Source of the DNA: Escherichia phage vB_EcoM_Maryam
Sequence record: PQ799574.1
Strand: one strand, 5' to 3'
Length of the DNA: 64,000 nucleotides
The translations under genes and the position numbers were made by a program. Positions within the stretch are counted from its first letter, which is position 1. Every line of letters starts with the position of its first letter. Shown here piece after piece: positions 5,314 through 23,954 of the stretch. The notes under the pieces are model-generated. The model worked only from the letters and a program-made list of their open reading frames with translations, ran no database searches and was not told where the DNA came from.

Positions 5314-5316
5314 GAC

Positions 5317-5471: not shown

Positions 5472-5648
5472 ATGGTTGATAAAGAGATTAAAATTGACCA
5501 GTATTATCGTGTTAACGGACATATCGTTATTGTTACAGCAGTCGATGATCTAGATGTTCATTATACTGTGATTAAATGGAACAAACGTATGATTTGTGAT
5601 CGTGCTGTATTTAGTTCAGTTGCTAAGGAAATTAAACTCCATGGGTAA
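5472..5648 (+). CDS. small hypothetical protein (58 aa)
   Basis: ATG 5472 preceded by GAGGA; not in ORF track (<60 aa). Confidence 0.4.
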   Translation: MVDKEIKIDQYYRVNGHIVIVTAVDDLDVHYTVIKWNKRMICDRAVFSSVAKEIKLHG

Positions 5649-5934: not shown

Positions 5935-5941
5935 GGAAAAT

Positions 5942-6073
5942 ATGAATATCAAACGAATGCTTTTTAAGCAGGGGTTATACACTTTAAATGTTACTCCAAA
6001 AGGTGATACAACTAAGTGGTCAGTAAATGACTGGATTAAATTTATTGATGAAAATGGTAATTGGGAAATTTAA
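5942..6073 (+). CDS. small hypothetical ORF
   Basis: ATG 5942 with GAGGA upstream; in frame with ORF track 5858..6073. Confidence 0.35.
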   Translation: MNIKRMLFKQGLYTLNVTPKGDTTKWSVNDWIKFIDENGNWEI

Positions 6074-6274
6074 ATGAATCCTGAATCTAAATTATCGCAG
6101 CGAATTGCCGAAGCTCGTCGTCAGTTCTTTGAAAATATGATAGCACAAGGTATTGATGACGAAGTTTTTCTAAACTGGTTTTGGAATCACAAATATTCAA
6201 GTTGCTCAGGAGCAATATTAATATCAGCCGCAATGATGTATGAAGGCTGGAAGGGTGCCAAACGGTTTAGCTAA
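6074..6274 (+). CDS. hypothetical protein
   Basis: ORF track 66 aa. Confidence 0.5.
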   Translation: MNPESKLSQRIAEARRQFFENMIAQGIDDEVFLNWFWNHKYSSCSGAILISAAMMYEGWKGAKRFS

Positions 6275-6291
6275 GGGCTTCGGCCCTTTTT
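6274..6291 (+). terminator. GGGC-TTCG-GCCC hairpin plus T-run
   Basis: Tetraloop hairpin followed by TTTTT. Confidence 0.55.
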
Positions 6292-6326
6292 GGATAATAA
6301 AATTTTAATGCAATTGAGGATAATGT

Positions 6327-6653
6327 ATGACTATTCAAATTAAAAACGCCATCAATTCTTACGCATATGATAAAGTAGTTTCTTTGTTAGAAAAAGGCGA
6401 TATTGTAACTCCTCAAATTTTGGATAAATGGGAAAAAGAGCTTCATCAAATGATGAAACAGAATGATCAGAAGATTGGACGCAATACTGTCCGTGAATTG
6501 TTGGTTCAATATATCTTGTCAGAATTTGATGTTAAAGCTTTTGGTGTAGAATCTAAAGCTTATCAAAAGCATGAAATTTCCGATAAAACTATTCGTCGCA
6601 TGAAAAATCAACGCAAGAAAAAATTTGCAGACCTGAAAATTACTAAGGTATAA
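6327..6653 (+). CDS. hypothetical protein
   Basis: ORF track 108 aa. Confidence 0.5.
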   Translation: MTIQIKNAINSYAYDKVVSLLEKGDIVTPQILDKWEKELHQMMKQNDQKIGRNTVRELLVQYILSEFDVKAFGVESKAYQKHEISDKTIRRMKNQRKKKFADLKITKV

Positions 6654-6655
6654 TT

Positions 6656-6871
6656 ATGAACGAAGCTCTTATTAACGATTTGCGTCTTGCCGGATATGAA
6701 GTAAATACAAACGGCAATGGTTTAACTCAAATTGAAGGAAATGGATTCATCCTTGAGTATGAATTTAGCCAATGGTGGTTATATGCCAATTACGGCGAAT
6801 TGATTGAATATGTTGACCAATTTGATTCACTAGATGCAGCTCTTGGAGCGGCTAAGTTGATGAATGTATGA
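6656..6871 (+). CDS. hypothetical protein
   Basis: ORF track 71 aa. Confidence 0.5.
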   Translation: MNEALINDLRLAGYEVNTNGNGLTQIEGNGFILEYEFSQWWLYANYGELIEYVDQFDSLDAALGAAKLMNV

Positions 6872-7137
6872 AATTTATTAATATTTCTATTACTATTGAA
6901 AATTATGGCATTTTCTATGTTGACCAATACATGAAAATTTCATTTTTCCCAAATAAGACTGGTGTTGGATATTGGGAAAGCCATGTTTCTGAATTAAATG
7001 AAAGTGAATATGTTAGTACACATGAAAAGTTTTTAGACTTTTTATATCATGCTGATCTAACTAGTCATTATATAGATATTCATGAATTTAAAAAGATGAT
7101 GGAGAAAGTATTCCAAGCATACTGTTTACTTAGATAA
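6868..7137 (+). CDS. hypothetical protein
   Basis: ORF track 89 aa. Confidence 0.5.
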   Translation: MKFINISITIENYGIFYVDQYMKISFFPNKTGVGYWESHVSELNESEYVSTHEKFLDFLYHADLTSHYIDIHEFKKMMEKVFQAYCLLR

Positions 7138-7150
7138 CTGATATCCTCTA

Positions 7151-7190
7151 TGCTTTAAGATAGATCTTCAAATATTATGATATAATAGAT
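7151..7190 (+). promoter_or_regulatory. possible middle-type promoter (MotA-box-like TGCTTTA plus TATTAT) upstream of gene 55
   Basis: TGCTTTA at 7151-7157 and TATTAT about 15 nt downstream. Confidence 0.3.
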
Positions 7191-7215
7191 CTATGAATTG
7201 AGCTAAGAGGTGAAA

Positions 7216-7773
7216 ATGTCAGAAACTAAGCCTAAATATAATTACGTAAACAATAAAGAGCTTTTACAAGCTATTATTGATTGGAAAACAGAATTAGCAA
7301 ATAATAAAGACCCAAATAAAGTAGTTCGTCAGAATGATACTATCGGATTAGCCATTATGCTTATTGCAGAAGGCTTATCTAAGCGTTTCAACTTTTCAGG
7401 ATACACCCAGTCTTGGAAACAAGAAATGATTGCAGATGGTATAGAAGCTTCTATTAAGGGGCTTCACAATTTTGATGAAACGAAATATAAAAACCCACAT
7501 GCATATATAACTCAAGCTTGTTTTAATGCATTCGTCCAGCGTATTAAAAAAGAACGTAAGGAAGTTGCAAAGAAATATAGTTACTTCGTTCACAATGTCT
7601 ATGACAGTCGTGACGACGATATGGTTGCGTTAGTAGATGAAACTTTTATTCAAGACATCTACGATAAAATGACGCATTACGAAGAATCAACCTATAGAAC
7701 ACCGGGGGCTGAAAAGAAAAGTGTTGTAGACGATTCTCCTAGTTTGGATTTTTTATATGAGGCTAACGATTAA
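7216..7773 (+). CDS. 55: late-transcription sigma factor gp55
   Basis: 185 aa from ATG 7216 ([23 protein letters not shown]...), recalled T4 gp55; ORF track starts 6 nt upstream at GTG. Confidence 0.9.
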
Positions 7774-7975
7774 CCTCTCCGGATTCTTGGAAGAAATACC
7801 TGAAGTTGAAGCTATTCCCTATTTACTTAAAATGTATCTCAGGGAAGTTTTAGCTCTTGACATTGATATTGATCCAGAAAATCCGTATGATACCGCTTTT
7901 AAATCTAATGGTGTAGAATTAAATTACAGGTATCATTTAACAGATGATGATTTTTATTTTATATTAGAGAAATAA
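7757..7975 (+). CDS. hypothetical protein
   Basis: ORF track 72 aa; start uncertain. Confidence 0.4.
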
Positions 7976-7976
7976 T

Positions 7977-8294
7977 ATGACTGATAAACCCGAAATTAAT
8001 GATGAAGTGGAAAAGCTTATTTCTTCTATTGAAGAAAAGAACCGTCTTGAAGCAGAAAGAAAAGCAAATAAGTTATTGTCTAAAAACAAACGCGAACTGA
8101 ATCGTCTTTATAAGCATGCTCAGATTGCGGCTGAAAATAATAATTTTGCTCAATACGAATATGCTATCAAGAAAAGTCGGGATATTCTAAAACAGCCATA
8201 TAACGATGAACTCATCAGTATTCTTTGGAAGACTACTAGATCGCAAATTGAGGATATGATTGATGCTTACACACGTAAAATTCAAGCGTCTTAA
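7977..8294 (+). CDS. hypothetical protein
   Basis: ORF track 105 aa. Confidence 0.5.
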   Translation: MTDKPEINDEVEKLISSIEEKNRLEAERKANKLLSKNKRELNRLYKHAQIAAENNNFAQYEYAIKKSRDILKQPYNDELISILWKTTRSQIEDMIDAYTRKIQAS

Positions 8295-8466
8295 AATTAA
8301 TGCAGGATTTACTGAATCTTTGAATGGTCATCTTTGTGTGAAAATTTCTGAAAAAGAATACCATGATAGTTCAATTAAAGAAGTTAATCCTCCTATTGTA
8401 AGAGCAGACCCTAATATGAAAGTGTGGGTTGATTCTTATCAAGTCAAAAAATGGTGGCAGTTATGA
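8260..8466 (+). CDS. hypothetical protein
   Basis: ORF track 68 aa. Confidence 0.45.
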   Translation: MMLTHVKFKRLKINAGFTESLNGHLCVKISEKEYHDSSIKEVNPPIVRADPNMKVWVDSYQVKKWWQL

Positions 8467-8709
8467 AAGATGAACATCCAGACTTCTGAAATAGATTATA
8501 ATAAAATTCGTTCCTCTAAAGAGGAAATGATGAGACTCTTTAAAGCGTCTCATGATAAAGCTAAAGCAGAAGGAACTATAAAATATAAGCGCATAAAATT
8601 TAAAAGTTCTAACGAGCCTCTGTATGGCGTATTATGTGGATAGGAGCTTCGGCTCCTATATTGCTTTATAAATTTTTGGTAAAATAAACCAAAACAAAGA
8701 GGATATTAA

Positions 8710-9912
8710 ATGAAAGTATGTATTTTTATGGCTCGAGGTCTTGAAGGTTGTGGTGTAACAAAATTCTCACTCGAGCAACGTGATTGGTTTATTAAAAATG
8801 GTCATGAAGTAACTTTGGTTTATGCTAAAGATAAATCATTTACTCGTAATTGCGCGCATGATTATAAATCATTTTCAATTCCGGTTTTATTGGCAAAAGA
8901 ATATGATAAAACACTTAAGCTGGTAAATGATTGTGATATTCTAATTATCAATTCAGTTCCTGCTACTTCGGTTGAAGAAGACACTATTAATAACTATAAA
9001 AAAATTATTGATAACATTAAACCTTCTGTTCGTGTTGTAGTTTATCAACATGACCATTCTTCTCTTTCTTTGCGCCGAAATTTGGGATTAGAAGAAACTG
9101 TTCGTCGAGCTGATGTTATTTTTAGCCATTCTGATAATGGTGATTTTAATAAAGTTCTGATGAAAGAATGGTATCCTGAAACAGTTTCTCTGTTTGATGA
9201 TATTGAAGAAGCACCGACAGTATATAACTTTCAGCCTCCTATGGATATTGCGAAGGTTCGGTCAACCTACTGGAAAGATGTTTCTGAAATTAACATGAAT
9301 ATCAACCGTTGGATTGGTCGTACGACTACATGGAAAGGTTTTTATCAGATGTTTGATTTTCATGAAAAACATCTTAAACCTGCAGGACTAAGTACTATTA
9401 TGGAAGGTCTGGAACGTTCTCCAGCGTTCATTCCTATTAAAGAAAAAGGAATTCCATACGAGTATTATCGTCTTCATCAAGTAGACCAAATTAAAATTGC
9501 TCCTAATTTGCCAACGCAAATTCTTGACCGTTATGTAAATAGCGAAATGCTTGAACGTATGAGTAAATCCGGTTTTGGTTATCAGTTGAGTAAGTTGGAT
9601 AAAAAATATCTACAACGTTCTTTAGAATATACTCATCTCGAGCTTGGTGCATGTGGAACAATTCCGGTATTTTGGAAATCTACTGGCGAAAATTTAAAAT
9701 TCCGTGTTGATAATACTCCGCTAATTTCGCATGATAGCGGTATCGTTTGGTTTGATGAAAATGATATGGAATCAACGTTTGAACGTATTAAAGAACTGTC
9801 ATCTGACCGAGCTCTTTATGACCGTGAGCGAGAAAAAGCGTATGAATTTTTGTATCAGCATCAAGATTCAAGCTTCTGCTTTAAAGAACAGTTTGACATT
9901 ATTACAAAATAA
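8710..9912 (+). CDS. agt: DNA alpha-glucosyltransferase
   Basis: 400 aa, matches recalled T4 alpha-gt in size and position between 55 and 47. Confidence 0.85.
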   Translation: MKVCIFMARGLEGCGVTKFSLEQRDWFIKNGHEVTLVYAKDKSFTRNCAHDYKSFSIPVLLAKEYDKTLKLVNDCDILIINSVPATSVEEDTINNYKKIIDNIKPSVRVVVYQHDHSSLSLRRNLGLEETVRRADVIFSHSDNGDFNKVLMKEWYPETVSLFDDIEEAPTVYNFQPPMDIAKVRSTYWKDVSEINMNINRWIGRTTTWKGFYQMFDFHEKHLKPAGLSTIMEGLERSPAFIPIKEKGIPYEYYRLHQVDQIKIAPNLPTQILDRYVNSEMLERMSKSGFGYQLSKLDKKYLQRSLEYTHLELGACGTIPVFWKSTGENLKFRVDNTPLISHDSGIVWFDENDMESTFERIKELSSDRALYDREREKAYEFLYQHQDSSFCFKEQFDIITK

Positions 9913-9929
9913 AGGGCTTCGGCCCTTTA
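9912..9929 (+). terminator. AGGGC-TTCG-GCCCT hairpin
   Basis: Tetraloop hairpin directly after agt stop. Confidence 0.5.
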
Positions 9930-9951
9930 GCTTTATACGGAGTTTGATATA

Positions 9952-10092
9952 ATGATATTTCTTGGATATGTGATACTTTTTCTTGCATTTTATCTATTCA
10001 CTAGAGCATGTTGGATTGGGTTCTTTAGCACTCCAGATGGATTTATTTCAATAATTTTATTTTGCATTTCAATGACGGTTCTTGATATATGA
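9952..10092 (+). CDS. small membrane protein (46 aa) between agt and 47
   Basis: ATG 9952, hydrophobic MIFLGYVILFLAFYLF...; TGA overlaps gene 47 ATG. Confidence 0.4.
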   Translation: MIFLGYVILFLAFYLFTRACWIGFFSTPDGFISIILFCISMTVLDI

Positions 10093-11108
10093 AAATTTTA
10101 AATTTAGGTGATTGGCATTTAGGCGTTAAAGCTGATGATGAGTGGGTTCAATCCATTCAGTTGGATGGAATTAAACAAGCAATAGAATATTCTAAGAAAA
10201 ATGGAATTACTACCTGGATTCAATACGGCGATATTTTTGATGTGCGAAAAGCGATCACGCATAAAACTATGGAGTTTGCTCGTGAAATAGTTCAAATGCT
10301 TGATGATGCTGGTATTACCCTACATACTATTGTAGGAAACCATGATATGCACTTTAAAAATACTTTAACTCCAAATGCCTCTACTGAGCTTTTGGCTAAA
10401 TATCCTAATGTTAAAGTATATGATAAGCCTACTACAGTAGATTTTGACGGATGTTTAATTGATTTAATTCCTTGGATGTGTGAAGAAAATACTGGTGAAA
10501 TTCTTGAACACATCAAAACTTCATCTGCTTCTTTTTGTGTTGGTCACTGGGAACTGAATGGATTTTATTTTTATAAAGGAATGAAATCTCATGGTCTTGA
10601 ACCTGATTTCCTTAAGACTTATAAAGAAGTGTGGTCTGGTCACTTCCATACTATTTCTGAGGCTGCAAACGTCAGATATATTGGGACACCATGGACACTA
10701 ACTGCAGGTGACGAGAATGACCCTCGTGGGTTCTGGATGTTTGATACAGAAACAGAACGAATGGAATTTATTCCAAACAATACTACCTGGCATCGTAGAA
10801 TTCATTATCCATTTAAAGGAAAAATTGACTATAAAGATTTTACAAATCTATCAGTACGTGTTATAGTAACTGAAGTAGACAAAAATCTAACGAAGTTCGA
10901 ATCTGAACTAGAAAAAGTTGTGCATTCATTACGAGTTGTGTCAAAGATTGATAACTCTGTCGAGTCAGATGACAGTGAAGAAGTTGAAGTTCAATCTCTT
11001 CAGACGTTGATGGAAGAATACATTAATGCAATTCCAGACATCACTGATTCTGATCGCGAAGCACTTATTCAATATGCAAATCAGTTATATGTAGAGGCAA
11101 CACAATGA
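10089..11108 (+). CDS. 47: recombination endonuclease subunit gp47 (Mre11-like)
   Basis: 339 aa; phosphoesterase motifs (GDWH, GNHD); recalled T4 gp47. Confidence 0.9.
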   Translation: MKILNLGDWHLGVKADDEWVQSIQLDGIKQAIEYSKKNGITTWIQYGDIFDVRKAITHKTMEFAREIVQMLDDAGITLHTIVGNHDMHFKNTLTPNASTELLAKYPNVKVYDKPTTVDFDGCLIDLIPWMCEENTGEILEHIKTSSASFCVGHWELNGFYFYKGMKSHGLEPDFLKTYKEVWSGHFHTISEAANVRYIGTPWTLTAGDENDPRGFWMFDTETERMEFIPNNTTWHRRIHYPFKGKIDYKDFTNLSVRVIVTEVDKNLTKFESELEKVVHSLRVVSKIDNSVESDDSEEVEVQSLQTLMEEYINAIPDITDSDREALIQYANQLYVEATQ

Positions 11109-11368
11109 CTTTTGATGAATTTAAAAATGTTATGATGAGTCAGCATTTTGAATGCGAAGTAAAAGATGATATTGGTCATAAAGAAATTATTGAATATTGG
11201 TTTGAACCGCTAGAGGTTGAAGATAATTGTATTAAAAAGGTTACGGTCTGCACTGACTGGGCTGTATCTTTTAACTTCAACATTTTAGATAATGACACAC
11301 CTAAATCATTACGAGATATGGCTGTATCTTGTATTAAGGATGCATATTGTGAAGTTTTCGACATTTGA
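11105..11368 (+). CDS. hypothetical protein between 47 and 46
   Basis: ORF track 87 aa. Confidence 0.5.
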   Translation: MTFDEFKNVMMSQHFECEVKDDIGHKEIIEYWFEPLEVEDNCIKKVTVCTDWAVSFNFNILDNDTPKSLRDMAVSCIKDAYCEVFDI

Positions 11369-11555
11369 CATTAATGATGAATTCATAGCAAATATTGATT
11401 ATACCGAAGAAGATTCTAGATATGTTGGAATAATTTATATTACATCAAAAACAGCACAAGGTGTTGTTTGCATGGCTGAATTTGATGAATACTTTTTAGA
11501 TTATGATGATATGATAGAATGGTCTAAAAGATACATTAAAAGGAATCTTTTGTGA
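11340..11555 (+). CDS. hypothetical protein between 47 and 46, start uncertain
   Basis: ORF track 11292..11555 overlaps previous ORF; ATG 11340 is alternative start. Confidence 0.4.
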   Translation: MHIVKFSTFDINDEFIANIDYTEEDSRYVGIIYITSKTAQGVVCMAEFDEYFLDYDDMIEWSKRYIKRNLL

Positions 11556-13234
11556 AGAATTTTAAACTAAACCGAGTTAGGTATCAAAATATAATGTCAG
11601 TAGGTGGAAATCCTATTGACATTCAATTAGATAAGGTTCAAAAAACTCTTATTACTGGACGAAATGGCGGTGGTAAGTCTACTATGCTAGAAGCCATCAC
11701 ATTTGGGCTTTTTGGTAAGCCATTTCGTGATGTAAAGAAAGGTCAATTAATAAACAGCACAAATAAGAAAGAACTTTTAGTTGAACTGTGGATGGAATAT
11801 GATGAGAAAAAGTACTATATCAAAAGAGGACAAAAACCAAACGTTTTCGAAATCACCGTTAACGGTACACGTCTTAATGAATCTGCCAGCAGTAAAGATT
11901 TCCAAGCAGAATTTGAACAGCTTATCGGAATGTCATATGCCAGTTTCAAGCAGATTGTTGTCCTTGGTACAGCAGGGTATACCCCTTTCATGGGTTTGTC
12001 GACCCCTGCACGAAGAAAGCTTGTGGAAGACCTGCTTGAGGTAGGAACATTAGCTGAAATGGATAAGCTTAATAAAGCACTAATACGTGAATTAAATTCG
12101 CAGAACCAAGTGCTTGATGTTAAAAAAGATAGTATTATCCAACAAATTAAAATATATAATGATAACGTTGAACGCCAGAAAAAATTGTCTGGTGACAACC
12201 TTACTCGTCTGCAGAATATGTATGATGATTTGGCAAAAGAAGCTAGAACGCTAAAATCGGAAATAGAAGAAGCTAATGAAAGATTAGTTAATATTGTTTT
12301 AGATGAAGACCCGACTGATGCATTTAATAAAATCGGTCAAGAAGCATTTTTAATTAAATCAAAAATTGACTCGTATAATAAAGTCATTAATATGTATCAT
12401 GAAGGTGGATTATGTCCAACCTGTTTGTCACAATTAAGTTCCGGTGATAAAGTTGTTTCTAAAATTAAAGATAAAGTTTCTGAATGTACGCATTCATTTG
12501 AACAGCTTTCAACACACCGTGATAATTTAAAAGTTCTTGTTGATGAATACCGAGATAATATTAAAACCCAGCAGTCGTTGGCAAATGATATTCGCAATAA
12601 AAAGCAATCTCTAATCACGACGGTAGATAAAGCTAAAAAAGTTAAAGCGGCTATAGAAAAAGCATCTTCTGAGTTTATTGACCATGCTGATGAAATAGCA
12701 CTGCTTCAAGAAGAACTTGATAAAATTGTTAAGACAAAAACTAATTTAGTAATGGAAAAATACCACCGAGGAATTTTGACTGATATGCTCAAAGATTCTG
12801 GTATTAAAGGTGCTATTATTAAAAAGTACATTCCATTATTTAATAAGCAGATTAACCATTATCTTAAAATAATGGAAGCGGATTATGTGTTTACATTAGA
12901 TGAAGAATTTAATGAGACAATTAAATCCCGTGGTCGTGAAGATTTTAGTTATGCTTCATTTAGTGAAGGTGAAAAGGCACGAATTGATATTGCTCTTTTA
13001 TTTACTTGGCGTGATATTGCTTCTATCGTATCTGGTGTTAGTATTAGTACATTAATTCTTGATGAAGTGTTTGATGGGTCATTTGATGCCGAAGGTATTA
13101 AAGGTGTAGCTAATATTATAAATTCAATGAAAAACACTAATGTTTTTATAATTTCGCATAAAGACCATGACCCGCAAGAATATGGTCAGCATCTTCAAAT
13201 GAAGAAAGTTGGTCGATTTACTATAATGGTTTAA
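11552..13234 (+). CDS. 46: recombination endonuclease subunit gp46 (Rad50-like ATPase)
   Basis: 560 aa; Walker A GRNGGGKST; coiled-coil middle with CPTC zinc hook; GTG start. Confidence 0.9.
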   Translation: MKNFKLNRVRYQNIMSVGGNPIDIQLDKVQKTLITGRNGGGKSTMLEAITFGLFGKPFRDVKKGQLINSTNKKELLVELWMEYDEKKYYIKRGQKPNVFEITVNGTRLNESASSKDFQAEFEQLIGMSYASFKQIVVLGTAGYTPFMGLSTPARRKLVEDLLEVGTLAEMDKLNKALIRELNSQNQVLDVKKDSIIQQIKIYNDNVERQKKLSGDNLTRLQNMYDDLAKEARTLKSEIEEANERLVNIVLDEDPTDAFNKIGQEAFLIKSKIDSYNKVINMYHEGGLCPTCLSQLSSGDKVVSKIKDKVSECTHSFEQLSTHRDNLKVLVDEYRDNIKTQQSLANDIRNKKQSLITTVDKAKKVKAAIEKASSEFIDHADEIALLQEELDKIVKTKTNLVMEKYHRGILTDMLKDSGIKGAIIKKYIPLFNKQINHYLKIMEADYVFTLDEEFNETIKSRGREDFSYASFSEGEKARIDIALLFTWRDIASIVSGVSISTLILDEVFDGSFDAEGIKGVANIINSMKNTNVFIISHKDHDPQEYGQHLQMKKVGRFTIMV

Positions 13235-13248
13235 TTTATAAGAGATTA

Positions 13249-13272
13249 TGCTTTAATTTATTAGAGTATAAT
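13249..13272 (+). promoter_or_regulatory. middle-type promoter (MotA box TGCTTTA plus TATAAT)
   Basis: TGCTTTA 13249-13255, TATAAT 13267-13272. Confidence 0.4.
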
Positions 13273-13289
13273 CTCTATGGAGGAAAAAC

Positions 13290-13478
13290 ATGGAATATTC
13301 AACTGGACAGCATCTATTAACTATTCCTGAAATAAAACGATATATTCTGAGAAATAATTTTTCTAATGAAGAGCATATAGTTACTGAATCTATGCTTAGG
13401 AATGCATTTAAAGCAGAATATACAAAAATAATGTCCAATAGAAATGAAGCTTGGACTGTTACTGATTATTATGACTAA
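13290..13478 (+). CDS. hypothetical protein (gene 45.2-like)
   Basis: ORF track 62 aa; position between 46 and rpbA. Confidence 0.5.
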   Translation: MEYSTGQHLLTIPEIKRYILRNNFSNEEHIVTESMLRNAFKAEYTKIMSNRNEAWTVTDYYD

Positions 13479-13487
13479 AGGTGTATT

Positions 13488-13877
13488 ATGACTAAAATTA
13501 CTGTGAATTATACTGTTGATGTAAAAGATATTCAGCCAAAACACGTGCGTTCTGAATCAAATCCACAAAACCAAAATAAAATTCGTCGCGCATGGGTTTT
13601 GTCTCTTTCTGATAACGCAATGGAAGTTATTCAGAATAAAATTAAATCTGCACCTGCTCGTCATGCGTATTATGAAGCTATCGATCGTGAAGTAAGTAAT
13701 AAATGGATTGAACTAATGCGCAAACATACTACAGAATCCCTAAACGCCGGTGCTAAATTTATTATGACTTCATGTGGTGAACGCCTTGAAGATGATTATT
13801 GTGGTAATGCAGATGAACGTCTAATTGTTGCTGCTCAAATTGTTGCGGAAACAATTGCGGCTGATTTTAATCGTTAA
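13488..13877 (+). CDS. rpbA: RNA polymerase-binding protein RpbA
   Basis: 129 aa, position immediately upstream of gene 45 start; recalled T4 size. Confidence 0.6.
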
Positions 13878-13932
13878 TTGCTTTATTAAATTAGTTATAA
13901 AATTAAATCTCATTTGAATTGAAGGAAATTAC

Positions 13933-13992
13933 ATGAAACTGTCTAAAGATACTACTGCTCTGCTTAAAAATTTCGCTACTATTAACTCGTAA
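13933..13992 (+). pseudogene. 45: sliding clamp gene 45, 5' fragment only (19 codons then TAA)
   Basis: MKLSKDTTALLKNFATINS matches recalled gp45 N-terminus; remainder of the ~228-aa gene absent. Confidence 0.8.
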
Positions 13993-14062
13993 TTAAAATC
14001 GCAGCAGTTTTTTCATTCAGAACATCGTTAGAAGCTTTGATGATGTAAGTTACTTTAGACAT
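13982..14062 (-). pseudogene. motA: motA (middle transcription activator), 5' fragment only (25 codons)
   Basis: Minus-strand MSKVTYIIKASNDVLNEKTAAILIT then S and stop; matches recalled MotA N-terminus; converges on the gene 45 fragment. Confidence 0.75.
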
Positions 14063-14159
14063 TTTGTTTCTCCGTAGTTGATAAGACTATAATACCATAA
14101 GTTAAAGCAGAAGTAAACTTTATTTTGAGCTCTTTTTCAAGAGCTCTGGTAAAAATTAC

Positions 14160-14375
14160 TTAGATTGATAGGTCTTTAATCTTAGCTATTAAAACAGCTT
14201 TTCCTTCACGAAGTTTTTCCAGTTTACGACCATTAGAGCCGCGAACTACTAAGGAATTTATCTCCACTTCCAACCAATTTAGTTTTTCAACTAGTTCTTT
14301 ACGTTTAGCATTCATGCCGGGTTTAACTTTACCGAAACGGGTGGTAGCGTTTTGAGTATTTTTCATCTTATTCAT
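14160..14375 (-). CDS. hypothetical basic protein between motA and 52
   Basis: ORF track 71 aa. Confidence 0.5.
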   Translation of the reverse strand: MNKMKNTQNATTRFGKVKPGMNAKRKELVEKLNWLEVEINSLVVRGSNGRKLEKLREGKAVLIAKIKDLSI

Positions 14376-14417
14376 TTTAATCTCCAGTTATTTTTCTGTA
14401 TCAGTGTTGATAGGGTA

Positions 14418-14447
14418 ATAGTACCATGGAATGCTTTGGTTGTAAAC
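14418..14447 (-). promoter_or_regulatory. T4-type early promoter (GTTTACA 17 nt TACTAT) on minus strand
   Basis: Reverse complement of 14418-14447 reads GTTTACA...TACTAT; upstream of ORF 14160..14375. Confidence 0.5.
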
Positions 14448-14469
14448 CGTTTTGTGAAAAAAATTTTAA

Positions 14470-14497
14470 ATAAAAAAGGGAGAGCCGAGGCTCTCCC
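14470..14497 (-). terminator. GGGAGAG / CTCTCCC hairpin with T-run on minus strand
   Basis: Perfect 7-bp inverted repeat 14478-14484 / 14491-14497; A-run on plus strand gives U-run in minus-strand RNA. Confidence 0.55.
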
Positions 14498-14502
14498 TAA
14501 AA

Positions 14503-14652
14503 TTACTGCATGACTGTGATAACTGTCATGATAACACGTTGAATTCCGAACGCAAGAAGACCTCCTGCTACGGCTGGAACAACGCCTAAACCAGCCAGTA
14601 AAATGCTACCAGATACTAATGCAGCGCTTGTAATACCAATGAATGGACTCAT
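14503..14652 (-). CDS. small membrane protein (49 aa) downstream of gene 52
   Basis: Minus-strand ATG overlapping gene 52 stop; hydrophobic MSPFIGITSAALVSGSILLAGLGVV... Confidence 0.4.
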   Translation of the reverse strand: MSPFIGITSAALVSGSILLAGLGVVPAVAGGLLAFGIQRVIMTVITVMQ

Positions 14653-15977
14653 TTGATTTCCTCTAAATCTTTGGTGTATTCGGTAACTACATCAGTAGTT
14701 TTCCAATATTCGTTTTCTTCTTTTTTAGCTTTAGCTTCTTCAGCAAGTTTCTTTGCTTCATCGGAAGTCATATGAAAAATATTCATTCCAACTAGTTTAT
14801 CAACATAAGAAGAATACATATCGATTTTCGAAAGTTCTTCGGTCAGTTCTTTACGAGTTTTACCCTGTACAACAATTTCACCTGAAATTACTTTCTTAAT
14901 GAAATGTGCCTTGGCAAAGGCTAAACGAAAAGCTGATTCAGTTTCTTTAATTTTGTTATCAATTCGTTTTTGGACATAAGTTTTACGAACTTCAACGAAG
15001 TCTTTAATTAAATCAACTACGTTATCGTAAACTTGTAGTTTTCCTTTCTCATTAATAACCGTAATATTCTGAGAACGACGCTCAATCAACCCAAAGTCTT
15101 TCATAATTTTTGCATGGCGTTCTTCTTCATTATCGCTCAAAGAATATTCTTTACGGAATTTAACTTTGAATCCAAAACCGTGCTCACCGCAAGCATCATC
15201 CCATGTAATGAAGCCTTTATCTTCAAGTGGGTCTAAGATTTTACTCACATAAGTTTCACGATCATACTTATATGGAATCTCAGTGATATGCATTTGAGTT
15301 CGTGAAGTAAACTTATATGTTCCGCGAATTTCATATTGACCATCAATCTCAACGACTTCACCACGAAATTCTGGGAATTCTACCTTCGGTTTAGTTACTT
15401 TCTTTCCTTGAAGAGCTTGCAGTACAGCTTTCTTGACAGAAGAAACACTATGAGGAAGAATGTAAGTTGCATAACCAGTTGCAATACCGGAAACGCCATT
15501 AAGAAGAACAGTAGGAATAATAGGTAAATAGAAAGCAGGCGGAATGTGTTCTTTATCTTGATGTACCGGAGCATATTCAGTATCTTTATATACGTTATAG
15601 AAATTTTTACTTACACGAGCAAAAATATAACGACTTGCTGCTGCTTTTTGGACGGTACGAGAACCAAAGTTTCCTTGACCATCTAACAGAGGAAAATTAT
15701 TATTCCAAGTGTTAGCCATCAAAGCACCTGCGTCTTGTGCAGAGTTTTCGCCATGGTGATATCCAAGGTCCGCTACACCACCTGCAATAGAAGCAAGTTT
15801 GTGAAACTTATCTTTATTTCCTCGTGCCAAATCAAGAGCTCGAGCAATAACAAATCGTTGAACTGGCTTAAATCCATCAATCATATTTGGAATGGCACGA
15901 TTTTCAACCGTGTACATAGCATAAGCCAATGCTTCATTATCAATGATACTTTTTAAATCGCGATTATTCAGTTGCAT
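14649..15977 (-). CDS. 52: DNA topoisomerase II medium subunit gp52
   Basis: 442 aa; MQLNNRDLKSIIDNEALAYAMYTVENRAIP... typical topo II breakage-reunion domain. Confidence 0.95.
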   Translation of the reverse strand: MQLNNRDLKSIIDNEALAYAMYTVENRAIPNMIDGFKPVQRFVIARALDLARGNKDKFHKLASIAGGVADLGYHHGENSAQDAGALMANTWNNNFPLLDGQGNFGSRTVQKAAASRYIFARVSKNFYNVYKDTEYAPVHQDKEHIPPAFYLPIIPTVLLNGVSGIATGYATYILPHSVSSVKKAVLQALQGKKVTKPKVEFPEFRGEVVEIDGQYEIRGTYKFTSRTQMHITEIPYKYDRETYVSKILDPLEDKGFITWDDACGEHGFGFKVKFRKEYSLSDNEEERHAKIMKDFGLIERRSQNITVINEKGKLQVYDNVVDLIKDFVEVRKTYVQKRIDNKIKETESAFRLAFAKAHFIKKVISGEIVVQGKTRKELTEELSKIDMYSSYVDKLVGMNIFHMTSDEAKKLAEEAKAKKEENEYWKTTDVVTEYTKDLEEIK

Positions 15978-15981
15978 AAAT

Positions 15982-16122
15982 TTACCATACTAGTGAATGT
16001 AGTGCCATAATAACATCAGAAATGAAAAGCACGACTTGAATTAATCCGAACATTACTCCATAATATAGTGCTACTAATAAAGTAGCAAGGGCTAATGAAT
16101 AGCCCAAGATTTTCTTAATCAT
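15982..16122 (-). CDS. small membrane protein (46 aa)
   Basis: Minus-strand ORF MIKKILGYSLALATLLVALYYGVMF... between 52 and ac. Confidence 0.4.
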   Translation of the reverse strand: MIKKILGYSLALATLLVALYYGVMFGLIQVVLFISDVIMALHSLVW

Positions 16123-16273
16123 TAGTAGATAACAACACAAATGTTAAATATGCACACATACCTTGGGCTAAAGCTTGCGAAAACACGCTGCTGGCATCAA
16201 TACAGATAGTTAAAACACATGCTACTATCCAACAAATAAATGAAATAACTCCTAATAATTTTGCAATATTCAT
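16115..16273 (-). CDS. small membrane protein, ac-like (52 aa)
   Basis: Minus-strand MNIAKLLGVISFICWIVACVLTICID...; position between 52 and stp as for T4 ac. Confidence 0.4.
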   Translation of the reverse strand: MNIAKLLGVISFICWIVACVLTICIDASSVFSQALAQGMCAYLTFVLLSTND

Positions 16274-16280
16274 ATTTTCC

Positions 16281-16361
16281 TCACTGGCGTCCGAAGACGC
16301 CTTTAGTTTTAAGATTATTACGATAGAACTGCATCACATGTTCGTTATGGAAATTACTCAT
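16281..16361 (-). CDS. stp: Stp peptide (restriction alleviation / PrrC activator)
   Basis: 26-aa [29 protein letters not shown] matching recalled T4 Stp. Confidence 0.8.
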
Positions 16362-16819
16362 TAATATGCCTGCAAAACAAATTTAAAGTTATCAGCCAAC
16401 ATACGGTTCATTTCTTCAAGTGTTTGATACTCAGAATGATGATTACGAGTAAACGCCAAAGCTAACTGACCTTTACCAAATCCTGTCGTCAGAGGTTTCA
16501 TCTTAGAAGCAGGCAGATAAAATACTGTGTATGGAACATTGTTATTTGCAATAGTACGTGCAAGCTGAGACCGACGTTGACGAATATGACTTAGAACTGC
16601 ACTGAATCCTTGCTTAGAACGCTGATTACCTACATAAAATCGTGCAGACACACATGGATTACTAAATGGACGACCATCTAATTTACTTACTAAAAAGTAA
16701 AATCCAGGTTTAGATAAAATGTCTTTATGCGGAGTTCCCAAAAACCATTCACCGCCCTTGATTGTGCCAATAACAGTAGCGCCTGCATTATTCAGATCAG
16801 TAACAGTCATGTATTTCAT
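16361..16819 (-). CDS. ndd: nucleoid disruption protein Ndd
   Basis: ORF track 16361..16867; true start [18 protein letters not shown]... at 16819. Confidence 0.85.
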
Positions 16820-16879
16820 ATTAATTTCCTCTAAATTATTTTCTACTCCAAGGCCGCATGAATACACGCGGCCATTAAA

Positions 16880-17095
16880 TTAATCGTCGCAGTCGACGCT
16901 CAATTCCCAAAACTCTTCTACGGTATAAGTTTCAATATCATTTTCAATACAGAAACGTTCATTACTATTGTTTGCTAAAGTAGCGTTAACTGTCATTTTC
17001 TCGCTGGTACTCTTAAGAGGTGAAATACGAATTAACTGATCACCGTTATCTAAACAAAAAATTTCACCAACTTTTACATCTTTAAAACTTTTCAT
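16880..17095 (-). CDS. hypothetical protein (ndd-adjacent)
   Basis: ORF track 71 aa. Confidence 0.5.
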   Translation of the reverse strand: MKSFKDVKVGEIFCLDNGDQLIRISPLKSTSEKMTVNATLANNSNERFCIENDIETYTVEEFWELSVDCDD

Positions 17096-17210
17096 AATTC
17101 ACCTCAAGGAGTATAAAATCCGAATGCAGTTGTTGACCATCCCATCCAGTATGGGAAATTTGCACCAATGTAAAACATAAGAATATAAAACCAACCGCTC
17201 AGCAAATTCA

Positions 17211-17429
17211 TCATTTTACACCGTTCCAAATTGTTTCAACCACGGATTTTAAGCCATTTTGATGAATGTCCATTCCAACTACCGCCATCAAATAGATTCC
17301 AACTACAACTGAACCTAAGGCAAAAATCAGCATGAAAATGAATAAAGCCGGAAAAATATTATCGAAAAACCATTCAATAAATGTAAAAGCACTGCGTTTA
17401 CGCTTCATATTTTCCTCACATAAATCCAA
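17211..17429 (-). CDS. small membrane protein
   Basis: ORF track 72 aa, hydrophobic. Confidence 0.45.
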   Translation of the reverse strand: MDLCEENMKRKRSAFTFIEWFFDNIFPALFIFMLIFALGSVVVGIYLMAVVGMDIHQNGLKSVVETIWNGVK

Positions 17430-17529
17430 AGTAAACGTTTAATACATCAATCATTAAAACGATTGGGAATATACTCAAAACAACTAAAATTATAATTATA
17501 TTCCATATAGCTTTAATAATCTTTTTCAT
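17416..17529 (-). CDS. small membrane protein (37 aa)
   Basis: Internal ATG of ORF 17416..17664 with GGAGGA upstream; MKKIIKAIWNIIIILVVLSIFPIV... Confidence 0.4.
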   Translation of the reverse strand: MKKIIKAIWNIIIILVVLSIFPIVLMIDVLNVYFGFM

Positions 17530-17557
17530 TTTGTGTTCCTCCGTGGTTGATAGGGTA

Positions 17558-17587
17558 ATAATACCACAGAGGAACAGTCTTGTAAAC
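17558..17587 (-). promoter_or_regulatory. T4-type early promoter (GTTTACA 17 nt TATTAT)
   Basis: Reverse complement reads GTTTACAAGACTGTTCCTCTGTGGTATTAT. Confidence 0.5.
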
Positions 17588-17836
17588 AACTTTTTTAAAA
17601 ATATTCGTAATAAATGTGAATACCAATCACTACTGCCGAAACTTGCGCAACCCACCACGCACAAGCAATAAGTACAGAATTAAAAATTTTCATAATAACC
17701 TCATCACAAAAGTAAATGTTAAACAAATTACTGGAATACTAATTAACCAAACAAAACACCACCACAATGAACTCATAGTTCAATCTCAGCGATTTTCATT
17801 TTATTCTCCAAATCTGTATCAGTAGTTGATAGTTGT

Positions 17837-17866
17837 ATAGTACCACGGTCCTTGTGGTATGTAAAC
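17837..17866 (-). promoter_or_regulatory. T4-type early promoter (GTTTACA 17 nt TACTAT)
   Basis: Reverse complement reads GTTTACATACCACAAGGACCGTGGTACTAT; near-identical copy at 45026-45055. Confidence 0.5.
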
Positions 17867-17881
17867 CATTTTGTGAAATTT

Positions 17882-18439
17882 TTAAATGGAAAGATACCAT
17901 CCATTGTAGTTGCTTTTTCTTACAACCTTACGAAGGTCTTCTCTATCACCGATGAACTTCGGAGTGTACTGGATGACACCTGGATGAATTTCTTTAGTGT
18001 TGAATATAATTATACAGTCCGCGACCTGGTGATTTAGAATGGGCCCTAGATTTATTCCAGAACCATATGGATACTCTCCGCTGCATCCTGTTGTTACAGA
18101 AATCCAACGTGAGTCAGTTTGATGTGTCTTAACTTCTACACGGAGCCCGCAATATTTTGGATGTGCTAAAACATCCCATGCATATGTGTACGGATCATTG
18201 ACATCTTCTTGGCCTTTATTGACATATCCGCTTAGCCAATCTGCTACAAAAAACTCTGCGTACACAGCGATACGGCATCTTTCGATAACTTCTGTCTTAT
18301 CCTGATTTGGGTTTTGTTTTAAAGAGTATCTTGCAGTATCAGCAATTTTGACCTTCATTTCACCAGTCAAGTCACTGTTCGATAGGGTAAATGTCGGAAT
18401 CTGAAATAGTCTCTGTAGCCCCGGATTCGTTTTCTGCAT
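17882..18439 (-). CDS. denB: endonuclease IV DenB
   Basis: 185 aa, size and position (between ndd and rIIB) match recalled T4 DenB. Confidence 0.7.
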   Translation of the reverse strand: MQKTNPGLQRLFQIPTFTLSNSDLTGEMKVKIADTARYSLKQNPNQDKTEVIERCRIAVYAEFFVADWLSGYVNKGQEDVNDPYTYAWDVLAHPKYCGLRVEVKTHQTDSRWISVTTGCSGEYPYGSGINLGPILNHQVADCIIIFNTKEIHPGVIQYTPKFIGDREDLRKVVRKSNYNGWYLSI

Positions 18440-18496
18440 TTAAACTTTCCTTTATGTCGGAATCACTGATATTCATATAATAAATCATAAAACAAA

Positions 18497-18510
18497 AGGG
18501 CCGAAGCCCT
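18497..18510 (-). terminator. AGGGC-UUCG-GCCCU tetraloop hairpin
   Basis: Inverted repeat with CGAA loop on plus strand (UUCG in minus-strand RNA). Confidence 0.45.
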
Positions 18511-18514
18511 TATT

Positions 18515-18709
18515 TTATTTGAATTGTGCAATTCTTTTCTCTAGACATTCAGCATAAGATTTCATTGAGATGAACTGTGAAAGCAGCAGTTCTTGCTCAA
18601 CTGCACTAACCGTTAGAAACTTTGTGCTTTCTAAAAATTTGCTCAGTGCATTAATTTTGAGCATTAATTGATCGTATTCTTCTTTTACTCGTGCTTGATA
18701 ACCTAACAT
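18515..18709 (-). CDS. hypothetical protein between rIIB and denB
   Basis: ORF track 64 aa; bracketed by two copies of the same hairpin. Confidence 0.5.
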   Translation of the reverse strand: MLGYQARVKEEYDQLMLKINALSKFLESTKFLTVSAVEQELLLSQFISMKSYAECLEKRIAQFK

Positions 18710-18716
18710 AATTTTC

Positions 18717-18730
18717 CTTAGTTAAGGGCC
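18717..18730 (-). terminator. AGGGC-UUCG-GCCCU tetraloop hairpin (second copy)
   Basis: Same motif AAGGGCCGAAGCCCTTA as at 18497. Confidence 0.45.
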
Positions 18731-18737
18731 GAAGCCC

Positions 18738-19676
18738 TTATTTAAATTGTTCAGTAACGTCTTCAACTACTTCATATTGGCAGGTACGCATTTTAGCATC
18801 ATTGTAATCAATCGGAATTGATACTACATCACGTGGATGTACTTTAACTTTTACAACTCGGCTGGTTGAACTGCCAAAGTGACGAATATAAGATTTAGAA
18901 CACACATGCAGACCACGAGAACAAGTTTGTGTATCATCGTCATTCACACGAGTACGCGGCATTTTAACTACTTTACCAGGACTGTTATCAAAGGTATTTG
19001 AGTGACAGTCAAAGTAATTGCTGCGAACTACTTTCCAAGCATAGAAGTAACCATCTTCTGTAATTTCAATATCGTTTGCTACCAAGAAATCAAAAAGTCG
19101 AGATACCGCTTTCTGGCTTGGGTTTTCCAGCAGATTTTCCAAGAACGGAAAATAAAATTCAAAGTTTTCGCCTTTTTCCATCGAATCAAGAATACGATCA
19201 ACCAAACCAGACCGCAATTCAATATTTTGATAGAATAAGCTTCCACCTTCAATTCGAACATCGCCGGAAATATATTTTTCAACAGCACGACGAACATTAA
19301 TTTTTTGTGCCGCTTCTTCCAGCTTATCTGCTACAAGCAGATTAAGAATTTCCTGGAAGTTTGAATGAGTATTAGGAGTTGCGTTATAAGTTACACCGTC
19401 AACAGTAATTGAAATGAATTTTTTAGATGCATTCCAAATAATGTCAGATTTAGCAACTGGAGCAATAACTGCATCGCTATTAACTTTAACTGTAATATCA
19501 CCGCTAATAGTAACTTTAGAGCGTTTAGCTTCTTCAGCATTTTTCAAAACACGACGGATTGTGTCAACCGATACATCCTTCCAATAAGCTAATTCCTGCT
19601 GAGTGTAATTACCACTTGAATACAGTTTAACAATTTCAGCTTGTTCGTTTTTGGTCAGGCATTTAATATTGTACAT
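18738..19676 (-). CDS. rIIB: rIIB protein
   Basis: 312 aa, MYNIKCLTKNEQAEIVKLYSSGNYTQQELA...; adjacent to rIIA. Confidence 0.9.
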   Translation of the reverse strand: MYNIKCLTKNEQAEIVKLYSSGNYTQQELAYWKDVSVDTIRRVLKNAEEAKRSKVTISGDITVKVNSDAVIAPVAKSDIIWNASKKFISITVDGVTYNATPNTHSNFQEILNLLVADKLEEAAQKINVRRAVEKYISGDVRIEGGSLFYQNIELRSGLVDRILDSMEKGENFEFYFPFLENLLENPSQKAVSRLFDFLVANDIEITEDGYFYAWKVVRSNYFDCHSNTFDNSPGKVVKMPRTRVNDDDTQTCSRGLHVCSKSYIRHFGSSTSRVVKVKVHPRDVVSIPIDYNDAKMRTCQYEVVEDVTEQFK

Positions 19677-19687
19677 AATTTTCCTTA

Positions 19688-21865
19688 TTAGGCCGCAAGG
19701 GCCTTCATAGTTTTAGCGATTTGGGAAACTTCATCATCACTTAAAGAGTTGCGATATCCGATGAAGTCGGAAACAATACGGAATTTCTTGGTAAACTCAG
19801 CAACCATTTTATCACTGTTTTTTGAAGCATTATTTGATAATACATCAAAAAGATTAGTTACTGTCCAGATGTCATGACCGATGGTATCTTTTCCACCATT
19901 AAAATATACACCGCGCAATGAACTAACTATATTAGCGAGTCGTGTATATTCTTCAGAAACTTCATCTGTACTGAAGTACTTCATCATAAAATCTAGTTCA
20001 GGATACTTGATAATTTTATCAATATATCGTTGAGCTGAACTTGAATAACCTACATACTTATCATAATCTACATCATCAAAAGCATCTACATATAAATCAC
20101 GCAAAGCTTCAAAAATACATTGGCACTGACCGAGTTCTTTTACCTTTTTCTGTAAAAGCGGACGAATAACATAAAATTCATTAATGCCAATAAGATTAGC
20201 CATACGAATCAAAATATTCATAGATGGATGACAAAGAGATGTAGTACCATCCATAGAGAAAATATCAGAACGATGCATATACGCTACATAACCAGTAATT
20301 TCATCTGCTTCTGATGTGAGCGTAAATAATTCCTCTTTTTCCCATCGCCCATCTTTAATTTCAAACTTAAATGCTGTAGCAGCTTTAGGACGAGGAGCTT
20401 TACTTTTAACTACCTTTGGAATATAGCTTTTAACTAAAGCTTCAATTTCTGACAAATAATGAATGTTAACTTCATCACTTTCAAACATCGCCATAATATC
20501 AGGAAGTAAATCAATCTGCGATTCTACTTCCGGATTAATAAACAGAAGACGCTCATTGTGATGAATATTCAAAGTGTTATTAAATTCACTATCATCTAAC
20601 GCGTGTGCTAATCCACGGACAATATTAACACGATTTTTAATATTATCAATAACGATATTAATTTTTGTTGCATTAATACCAAACAGACGATAACTTGATG
20701 CAACGGCTGAAGTTTCATGACTTTGCTTAATGCGCTTCAGTCGAGGGTCAAGATTTACTTCATACACAACTCCTGCATTACATAACTTACTATCAGGTTC
20801 AAACATGCTTTGCATCTTCTTATATGACAGATTTTTAGTCGTAAATTTGACTGAATTACTAATCATATAATCTCGAGCAGAATACCCCATCTTCATCAAT
20901 TCACGATATGTATGACGGGGAGATGTGGATTCTTTAAATCGTTTTACATCTTCATTAAATGCTTTCTCACTGAGTTCTTTAACTCGTTCAATGATATTTT
21001 TACGAGTGCGATCATCTAGTGAAAGAGCCTCGCGAGATGGAGCAATATCAAGTGAACCCATTGGAAACTTAATGTAATTCACTTCATTGCGAATGCTTAG
21101 CCAGTTACGGTCTCTAATAACACCATCGATAGGATAAACAATACCGCCATAGATAGCATATAATCCACCACGATCAGGCCAGTATCTTTCTGGATTTACA
21201 CCATAATAATCATCAAAATCCGGAAAATAATCAATTTCACGGTCAAGACCATTAATGATAGCCAAATCTTTGAACGGTCGCATGATATAAGAAACTTCAT
21301 AAGCAAAGTTTCTAAAGTCTTTTTCTTCAACTGGAACTACGATTTCAATACCAGTTTTATCATCTGGACCCATTTCTTTTACGAATGTAGGTTTAATCTG
21401 TGGACCATCACCATCCATGTAAGCTACATAACCACGAATTTCACCTTTATGATACGAAGTAATACTAAACGTATCAGTATAACTAAACGGAGATTTAGAA
21501 CCTAAACCAAATCCGCCAATAAAGTCATTAGATTCAGCTTTAGATGAACTGAAGTATGAATTATACAACCCAGGAGAATTATCATCACCTTGAATATCAA
21601 AATCACTCATACCCGGACCAAAATCTCGACAAACAAATCGCGGGTCTAAACGTCCAGGAACTTGTATGATAAATTTCTCTGGATTTCCATTAAGTGCATG
21701 AGCATCAATCATGTTAGTAATCAATTCACGGACTACTGCGCGAATCTTGTTTGTATACAAATCAGACGACAGAATTTTAAATACTTTAGGAGATGCTGTG
21801 ATGCTAAATGCTTTCGATTTAGAACCATTACCAAGAATTGTTTCTTTTTCAGTGGTGATAATCAT
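19688..21865 (-). CDS. rIIA: rIIA protein
   Basis: 725 aa, [25 protein letters not shown]...; GHKL-type ATPase-like N-terminus. Confidence 0.9.
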
Positions 21866-21875
21866 AATTTCCTCA

Positions 21876-22079
21876 TTAATTCATATTACGCTTAATAACT
21901 TCAGCAACTTCTAGTAGTTCATCTTTAGTTGCGGTGTCGGATTGAATTTTATCTCTAATATCTTTAAAGCGGTTTTTAAATTCTTCAGCTTCTCCCATAT
22001 CGAAAAAGCGTTGAATGATTCTATATTCTCGATGAACTGCTTTATCAAAAAGTTCTAAATTTACTTTATATGATTTCAT
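21876..22079 (-). CDS. hypothetical protein (rIIA.1-like)
   Basis: ORF track 67 aa. Confidence 0.5.
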
Positions 22080-22104
22080 TTCAATATCCTCATTTGCCCA
22101 ATTA

Positions 22105-22134
22105 ATTATACCACATCCTTGTGGTAAAGTAAAC
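22105..22134 (-). promoter_or_regulatory. T4-type early promoter (GTTTAC ... TATAAT) for rIIA.1/rIIA
   Basis: Reverse complement reads GTTTAC ~18 nt TATAAT. Confidence 0.45.
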
Positions 22135-23954
22135 TACTGGCTCATCCATTCTTTACGAAGGTCAGCATTATCTCCCATGAGCATTTCAAAAAGCTCTTTC
22201 CAGTTCTCAGGAAGTTTAACAACATCATATACTGGGTTTTGAATCATCTCACGATATTCAGATTTTTCCAAAGAGCCAAGTCCCTTAATATAACGGATGC
22301 TATGTTTAGGTAGAGCATCTTTGGCACTCTCATATTCAGCGACTGTATAAAACCATTCTTGTTTTTTACCGACCTGAGCGATGATTACAGGAGTTTTGAC
22401 AAAGCGAATTCGTCCTTGCTCAAACAATTCTGGCCAATTACTAAAAAATCCAAGCAGAGAAGGATAAATGCTTCCTAGACCATCATGGTCAGCATCAGTC
22501 ATAATAGCAATATTATGATAATTCAAGTTTTCAGCTTTTTCACCGAGAACTAATCCAGTGATTGCGCAAATATCAAATAGTTCTTTGTTTTTAAGCATAT
22601 CAGCATATGACATACCCCAACTATTAAGAACTTTACCACGCAATGGATAACCACCATGAAGTTCTTTATCACGAACATCAATAAGATATCCGATAGCCGA
22701 ATCACCCTCAGTCAAGAAAAGAGTCGTGTCAGCATCTTTACCACAAAGATTCGCTTTAATATGTTTATGAACCTTAGCTTTAGAAGCCTTTTTAGCTGCT
22801 TTTGTTTCTGCTGCTTTTTCTGCTGCCAATTTACGAGCCAAAGCAGCTTCAATAATCGGCATTAGAATTGCTTCATTATTTAGAATAGCACGTGAAATCT
22901 TTTTAGCATCAAGCTGAATATGACTACGGATTTCACCAAATGGAGAAGTCAAACGCTCTTTAGTTTGAGAATCAAATCGCATGTTTTTCATATCACGAAC
23001 AAACATAACGATAGTCAAACATTCTTTAACACGTGCTTTAGTTACATCAATTTTGAATTTACGTTTGATTTGTGGAATAAGGTCTTCACAAATATCATCC
23101 ATAACACAGTCAATGTGATGGCCACCATTCTTAGTGTGAATGTTATTCACATAAGTTAATTGACGAAATCCATCCGGTGAACGACCAACCGCAATAGAAC
23201 AATTTTCTTGTTCTTGAACAATAGCATGTTCATCATACTGTCGTGCATATTTCTTAAAATTGCCCTGAACCTTTTTACCATTAAAGGTAAATTGAATATC
23301 AGGATAAACAACAGCAAGTGTCTGGAGACGATCTAGTGTAATATCAAGATAAACTTGGGACAGCTCATTAGTTTCAAATGACATAAAATCAGGAATGAAA
23401 GTAACACGTGTTCCTTTCCATTTTCCAGGAATATCTTCCCATGATTTATTTTCCATGCCATTTGAACAACGAACTACAATATTATTTTGACCATCACCCG
23501 TTTCACCAACAAACATCACAGAAAAAATGTTTGTCAAACTAGAACCAACACCATTCATACCGCCGGTGACACGTTCTTTATCATCACCAAAGTTACCACC
23601 CGCTTTTGGAATAGTCCAAGCAGCAACTGGACCAGGAATTTCTTCACCGGTAGGTGTTTTAACCATCGCTTGTGGAATACCACGACCGTTATCTTCAACT
23701 GTTACTTGATTGTTTTTAATAGTAACATTAATTTTATTTGCGAATTTAAACTTAGTACGAATACCTTCATCGACTGAGTTATCGATAATTTCATCAATAA
23801 GCTTAACAAGACCAGGTACATACTGAACACTTTCCCATTTACCAAACAGAAAGCGCTCATGCATTTCATTAGCAGAAGAGCCAATGTACATGCCACTACG
23901 CTTTTTGATATGTTCAATATCGCTCAGAATTTTAATTTCATTCTTAATCATCAC
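22134..23954 (-). CDS. 39: DNA topoisomerase II large (ATPase) subunit, single fused gp39 (T2-type, no gene 60 split)
   Basis: 606 aa continuous ORF covering both the ATPase domain and the TOPRIM-containing C-terminal part. Confidence 0.9.
   Translation of the reverse strand: MMIKNEIKILSDIEHIKKRSGMYIGSSANEMHERFLFGKWESVQYVPGLVKLIDEIIDNSVDEGIRTKFKFANKINVTIKNNQVTVEDNGRGIPQAMVKTPTGEEIPGPVAAWTIPKAGGNFGDDKERVTGGMNGVGSSLTNIFSVMFVGETGDGQNNIVVRCSNGMENKSWEDIPGKWKGTRVTFIPDFMSFETNELSQVYLDITLDRLQTLAVVYPDIQFTFNGKKVQGNFKKYARQYDEHAIVQEQENCSIAVGRSPDGFRQLTYVNNIHTKNGGHHIDCVMDDICEDLIPQIKRKFKIDVTKARVKECLTIVMFVRDMKNMRFDSQTKERLTSPFGEIRSHIQLDAKKISRAILNNEAILMPIIEAALARKLAAEKAAETKAAKKASKAKVHKHIKANLCGKDADTTLFLTEGDSAIGYLIDVRDKELHGGYPLRGKVLNSWGMSYADMLKNKELFDICAITGLVLGEKAENLNYHNIAIMTDADHDGLGSIYPSLLGFFSNWPELFEQGRIRFVKTPVIIAQVGKKQEWFYTVAEYESAKDALPKHSIRYIKGLGSLEKSEYREMIQNPVYDVVKLPENWKELFEMLMGDNADLRKEWMSQ

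Follow-up and report, generated by a model that had tools for sequence, protein, structure and literature searches.

A flipped 35-kb block with two blunt junctions in phage record PQ799574.1 is most likely an assembly or finishing artefact

The sequence record PQ799574.1 of Escherichia phage vB_EcoM_Maryam contains a site at which the 5' part of the sliding-clamp gene 45 runs directly into the 5' part of motA, on the opposite strand. We analysed a stretch of 64,000 bp of this record, which is called the window here, and all positions refer to it unless another sequence is named. The site (J1, 13988|13989) is one of two junctions, and its partner (J2) locates at 49106|49107. J1 is very likely an assembly or finishing artefact of the record, and not a feature of the phage. 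A previous sequence-only reading had proposed a recombination, engineering or assembly junction; the assembly or finishing origin held up, and the other two origins are disfavoured by the evidence described below.

The features around J1 are as follows.

13933..13992, plus strand: truncated gene 45 (sliding clamp), 19 codons and then a TAA from foreign sequence; it reads MKLSKDTTALLKNFATINS followed by the stop
13982..14062, minus strand: truncated motA, codons 1-25 plus one junction-derived codon (Ser) and a stop; it reads MSKVTYIIKASNDVLNEKTAAILITS followed by the stop
14063..14117, minus strand: motA leader, intact, with a sigma-70-like promoter at 14117..14089 (TTTACT-17-TATTAT, TG extended)
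13988..13989, no strand: junction J1, blunt, T4 32548 (minus strand) joined to T4 163529 (plus strand), from base-level comparison with PV290051.1, BGP and T4

The sequence-only reading had gene 45 stopping after 19 codons and motA after 25, and the window sequence at 13933-14062 confirms both. By sequence comparison, the translation of 13933-13992 (+) is the first 19 codons of T4 gp45, and the 25 MotA codons, MSKVTYIIKASNDVLNEKTAAILIT, are identical to T4 at 24 of 25 positions. The leader upstream of motA had been described as intact, and it is, including its promoter; the leader region is 100% identical to that of phage BGP. That synteny breaks here, between the 5' fragments of two genes, had also been claimed, and mapping to T4 agrees with this. 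The two fragments had been called head-to-head and converging at the same time. They do converge, with their truncated 3' ends abutting, but the term head-to-head, as used of promoters, does not apply to them.

The crossover had been placed at about 13989/13990 with up to 2 bp (CG) shared by the two sides, and this had to be corrected. On the left side, PV290051.1 is 100% identical to the window up to 13988, and its next base is C where the window has G. On the right side, phage BGP (OZ035849.1) is 100% identical from 13989 on, and the preceding base is A where the window has C. The actual crossover is thus 13988|13989, with 0 bp of shared sequence, and the break falls at the identical base in all the reference loci compared (15/15). 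Because both flanks match T-even phages over kilobases (E = 0), the resemblance of J1 to T-even genes is not due to chance.

When the window was compared with T4 (NC_000866) by blastn, it was resolved into three collinear segments.

1..13988, plus strand (T4 48638->32548, T4 minus strand): segment A, with nrdC...49, nrdD, nrdG, 55, a-gt, 47, 46, 45.2, rpbA and the first 56 nt of gene 45
13989..49106, inverted relative to both flanks (T4 163529->168903 and 1->30862, T4 plus strand): segment B, with the motA 5' end, 52, rIIB, rIIA, 39, dda, 61, 41, uvsX, 42, 43, regA and gene 62 from codon 15
49107..64000, same orientation as segment A (T4 ~162025->147590, T4 minus strand): segment C, with an arn.2 fragment, arn.1, arn, asiA, t, 38, 37, 36, 35, 34, rnh, dsbA, 33, 59 and the start of 32

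Segment B is 35,118 bp long and lies opposite to segments A and C. Two stretches of T4 have no counterpart in the window. T4 30863-32547 covers the N-terminus of 62, all of 44 and gene 45 from codon 20, and the missing stretch measures 1,686 bp on MH992510.1. T4 162026-163528 covers the arn.2 5' end, arn.3, arn.4 and motA from codon 26, and the missing stretch measures 1,506 bp on phage BGP.

The second junction shows the same kind of join, in which gene 62 (from codon 15) is fused to arn.2 (from about codon 50).

49106..49107, no strand: junction J2, blunt, 0 bp shared, T4 30862 (plus strand) joined to T4 ~162025 (minus strand)
48586..49131, minus strand: gene 62 without its first 14 codons; gp62 residues 15-187 correspond to 49107-48589, and the ORF starts in foreign sequence beyond J2
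49107..49253, plus strand: arn.2 3' fragment, from about residue 50 to residue 98, without a start codon

The window belongs to a Tequatrovirus, with 91–98% identity to T4 across nearly its whole length and about 95 T4 proteins recovered. The genes of all three segments are collinear with T4, with 91–100% protein identity. Its backbone is not that of laboratory T4 but a T-even mosaic of environmental type, about 95–97% identical to any known phage. MH992510.1 shares about 97–98% identity with each of segments A and B, and BGP shares about 97% with each of segments B and C. These shared likenesses are consistent with one genome and leave a chimera between phages unsupported; judged from sequence similarity, a single phage, and not a mixture, is the plausible source of the three segments.

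The window differs from T4 at other places as well. The usual T-even mosaic differences are found at 22134-23954, 35139-36106, 42300-43247 and 50942-55061. Compared with T4, dam, segF, segA and beta-gt are absent from the window, and nrdD has no intron. The gp39 is a single 606-aa protein, and neither a gene 60 split or bypass nor mobA is present; gp38 is a 262-aa ORF and gp37 a divergent 1,103-aa protein. Between motA and motA.1, a 71-aa ORF (14160-14375, minus strand) is absent from T4 and 100% identical in BGP. It matches phrog_6200 (unknown function), and relatives carry a 75-aa ORF without a Pfam match at this site. The 71-aa ORF seems to be a variable cassette of natural origin that has nothing to do with J1.

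The most direct evidence on J1 came from PV290051.1, deposited as a 'complete genome' of 46,924 bp from Escherichia phage vB_EcoT_BCU-2 (River Chelt, UK). Window 1-13988 aligns to PV290051.1 32001-45988 with 100.000% identity and a constant offset of exactly 32,000, which suggests that the two sequences probably derive from the same isolate, the window being cut from a longer record whose first contig is this one. Past the position of J1, PV290051.1 continues for 936 bp, collinear with T4 to 31613 and into gene 44. Its gene 45 is complete (45933-46619, 228 codons). A full-length gene 45 continuing past 13990 had been named in advance as the observation that would speak against a real junction, and this is what PV290051.1 contains, in a sequence identical over the left 13,988 bases. 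PV290051.1 is itself a 46.9-kb fragment of a T-even genome of ~165 kb, extending from gp5 to where gene 44 begins. The name vB_EcoT_BCU-2 carries the non-standard morphotype letter 'T', and no publication on this phage was found in the literature; a single conference abstract naming the River Chelt came up, and it was unrelated.

Other phages gave the same picture. None of the 691 phage records matching the J1 region spans J1, and none of the 611 records matching the J2 region spans J2. The exact J1 and J2 sequences had 0 matches each in IMG/VR, and the exact J1 sequence had 0 matches in the JGI metagenomes. The ENA/NCBI contigs encoding an identical gp46 or gp52 all showed the canonical order (11/11), and no instance of a relative naturally carrying the 45/motA arrangement was found. 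The exact gp46 protein look-up returned only MH992510.1, a relative at 97.5% identity and not an assembly of this isolate, and gp52 is common to hundreds of canonical contigs by the same kind of look-up. In the relatives, the canonical orders are 46-45.2-rpbA-45-44-62-regA-43 and 52-motA.1-motA-arn.4-arn.3-arn.2. The T-even order of 45 followed by 44 and 62, as stated in the sequence-only reading, is borne out by T4 and these relatives. So is the stated place of motA, beside gene 52 and ~35 kb away; the distance is about 35–38 kb around the circular map. The true genome order is almost certainly rpbA-45-44-62-regA-43 and 52-motA.1-(71-aa ORF)-motA-arn.4-arn.3-arn.2.

The gene content of the sequence as written is also untenable. 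Gene 44 is absent, genes 45 and 62 are truncated and most of motA is missing. Genes 44, 45 and 62 are 'Core genes' of T4-related phages, a class defined by being essential in every condition known (PMC2993671, Table 3). In addition, the DNA polymerase gene 43 is frameshifted by a 1-bp deletion at ~47622, where GCTTATATCAG in T4 and MH992510.1 becomes GCTT-TATCAG, and gp43 is split into ORFs of 107 aa (47565-47888) and 775 aa (45193-47520), both on the minus strand. About 95 T4 homologues were checked and no other is frameshifted; the deletion is probably a consensus error. Because the core genes 44, 45 and 62 are lost and gene 43 is frameshifted, the genome as written cannot be viable, and a plaque-isolated phage cannot have such a genome.

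Inversions that arise by homologous or site-specific recombination need repeats, and misjoins in de Bruijn graphs need shared k-mers. Self-BLAST of the window (word size 11) returned six repeat pairs in all, and no direct or inverted repeat was found near 13989 or 49106. Since the junctions are blunt, without microhomology or repeats, these mechanisms are ruled out. An inversion by homologous recombination finds no repeat at either junction and leaves about 1.7 kb and 1.5 kb lost. A site-specific invertible segment of the Gin/Cin/Hin type is not supported either, as end inverted repeats are absent and ordinary T4 genes lie on either side of J1 and J2. A de Bruijn k-mer misjoin was rejected on the 0 shared bases at J1 and J2.

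The window also has a 55-bp exact direct repeat at 45002-45056 and 17792-17846, both intergenic, upstream of gene 43 and denB. Related copies lie at 25783-25815 and 17562-17588. The repeat belongs to a ~95-bp family, with T4 copies at about 6548, 27000, 163604 and 167012.

An assembly or finishing error would account for these observations as follows. At least three assembled pieces would have been put together into the record with their orientation unchecked. The middle piece (35,118 bp, window 13989-49106) would have been joined in the wrong orientation, and the bridging stretches of about 1,686 bp and 1,506 bp would have been omitted. When a circular map is made up of three contigs, they should be correct in any order, and random orientation would flip exactly one of them in 6 of 8 cases, which matches the pattern here. 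The blunt, homology-free junctions fit end-to-end concatenation, and we infer that contigs were concatenated or mis-scaffolded, and that the cause was not a chimeric long read. One mark of a misjoin is that the arrangement is unbroken in a separate sequence from the same organism, and PV290051.1 runs through an intact 45 into 44. Another is that the join is biologically untenable, and here 45 and 62 are truncated, 44 is absent and 43 is frameshifted. The gene 43 deletion is independent evidence of an imperfect consensus. Two observations speak against the artefact. PV290051.1 runs 936 bp beyond J1, and appending that exact contig would not yield J1; therefore, one has to suppose either another assembly run or some trimming of the ends. 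Moreover, about 95 genes other than 43 are intact, which means that the consensus is not generally poor.

The junctions might instead belong to a real molecule, in which an illegitimate event (end-joining or topoisomerase-type) turned about 35 kb around and removed about 1.5 kb at each break, giving a defective genome that was accompanied by a wild-type helper in the lysate. We consider this improbable. The blunt junctions without homology would be compatible with illegitimate recombination. The similar losses at both breaks (1,686 and 1,506 bp) are also what might follow resection at two double-strand breaks, and headful packaging tolerates rearranged genomes. However, such a defective genome could dominate the consensus only by being more abundant than its helper, J1 and J2 occur in no other sequence searched, and the intact arrangement is present in the identical deposit PV290051.1. 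Without 44, 45, 62 and motA, the molecule could not replicate alone (PMC2993671). The fuller form of this explanation, that the sequenced lysate was dominated by a helper-propagated, defective-interfering-like T-even genome with a 35-kb inversion, about 1.5-kb deletions at both breakpoints and homology-independent joining, is slightly less probable still. If the junctions were real, they would show that a T4-type genome had undergone a large inversion without the help of homology, which would be unusual.

Deliberate manipulation, either as an engineered phage construct or as an in-silico edit of the record in which the block was inverted and bases were removed, is about as improbable as the real molecule. 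In its favour, both cuts are clean, blunt and without homology, and J1 and J2 are unique across the public collections searched. But no vector, marker, scar, restriction-site or recombinase-site sequence was found at J1 or J2, the backbone is environmental and not that of laboratory T4, and the loss of 44/45/62 has no evident purpose and gives a dead phage. Least probable by far is that a viable and new T-even lineage naturally and stably has this gene order, and that its missing genes have moved, or have replacements, elsewhere in the genome. The window shows only 64 kb of the genome, which leaves room for such genes, and T4-related genomes have undergone translocations and inversions during evolution (PMC2993671). 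However, gene 45 is cut at codon 19 and gene 62 at codon 15. Because both cuts fall inside the coding sequence, relocating the missing pieces would not rescue either gene. The intact gene 45 of PV290051.1 in its usual place also argues against a natural order, as do the 11 closest contigs and hundreds of records that are canonical, and neither junction recurs in IMG/VR, nor J1 in the JGI metagenomes.

These results suggest that the record should carry a curation flag, as it needs re-assembly before it can serve as a reference or enter synteny, pan-genome and gene-essentiality analyses. Read literally, it would give the false impression of a T-even phage without clamp, clamp loader and MotA, and with a large inversion.

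Compared with known systems, the window has the same genes and local order as the canonical Tequatrovirus T4, with the segment ends at T4 32548, 163529, 30862 and ~162025. The difference is that the 35.1-kb block between the replication and early clusters is flipped in the window. PV290051.1 shares segment A with the window and differs from it in having gene 45 intact in the normal place. The invertible G segment of Mu (Gin) and C segment of P1 (Cin) resemble the window in having a DNA block in inverted orientation. In contrast to them, the block here has no end inverted repeats, sequence is lost at both of its ends, it spans 35 kb and essential genes are cut; no invertase was seen, and every ORF checked is an ordinary T4-type gene. 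Mis-scaffolded or concatenated draft assemblies, in which contigs are joined with neither gap characters nor a check of orientation, share with the window the blunt joins, one reversed block, missing bridging sequence and essential genes cut mid-codon, and the point of difference is that the contig end of PV290051.1 lies 936 bp past J1 and does not coincide with it.
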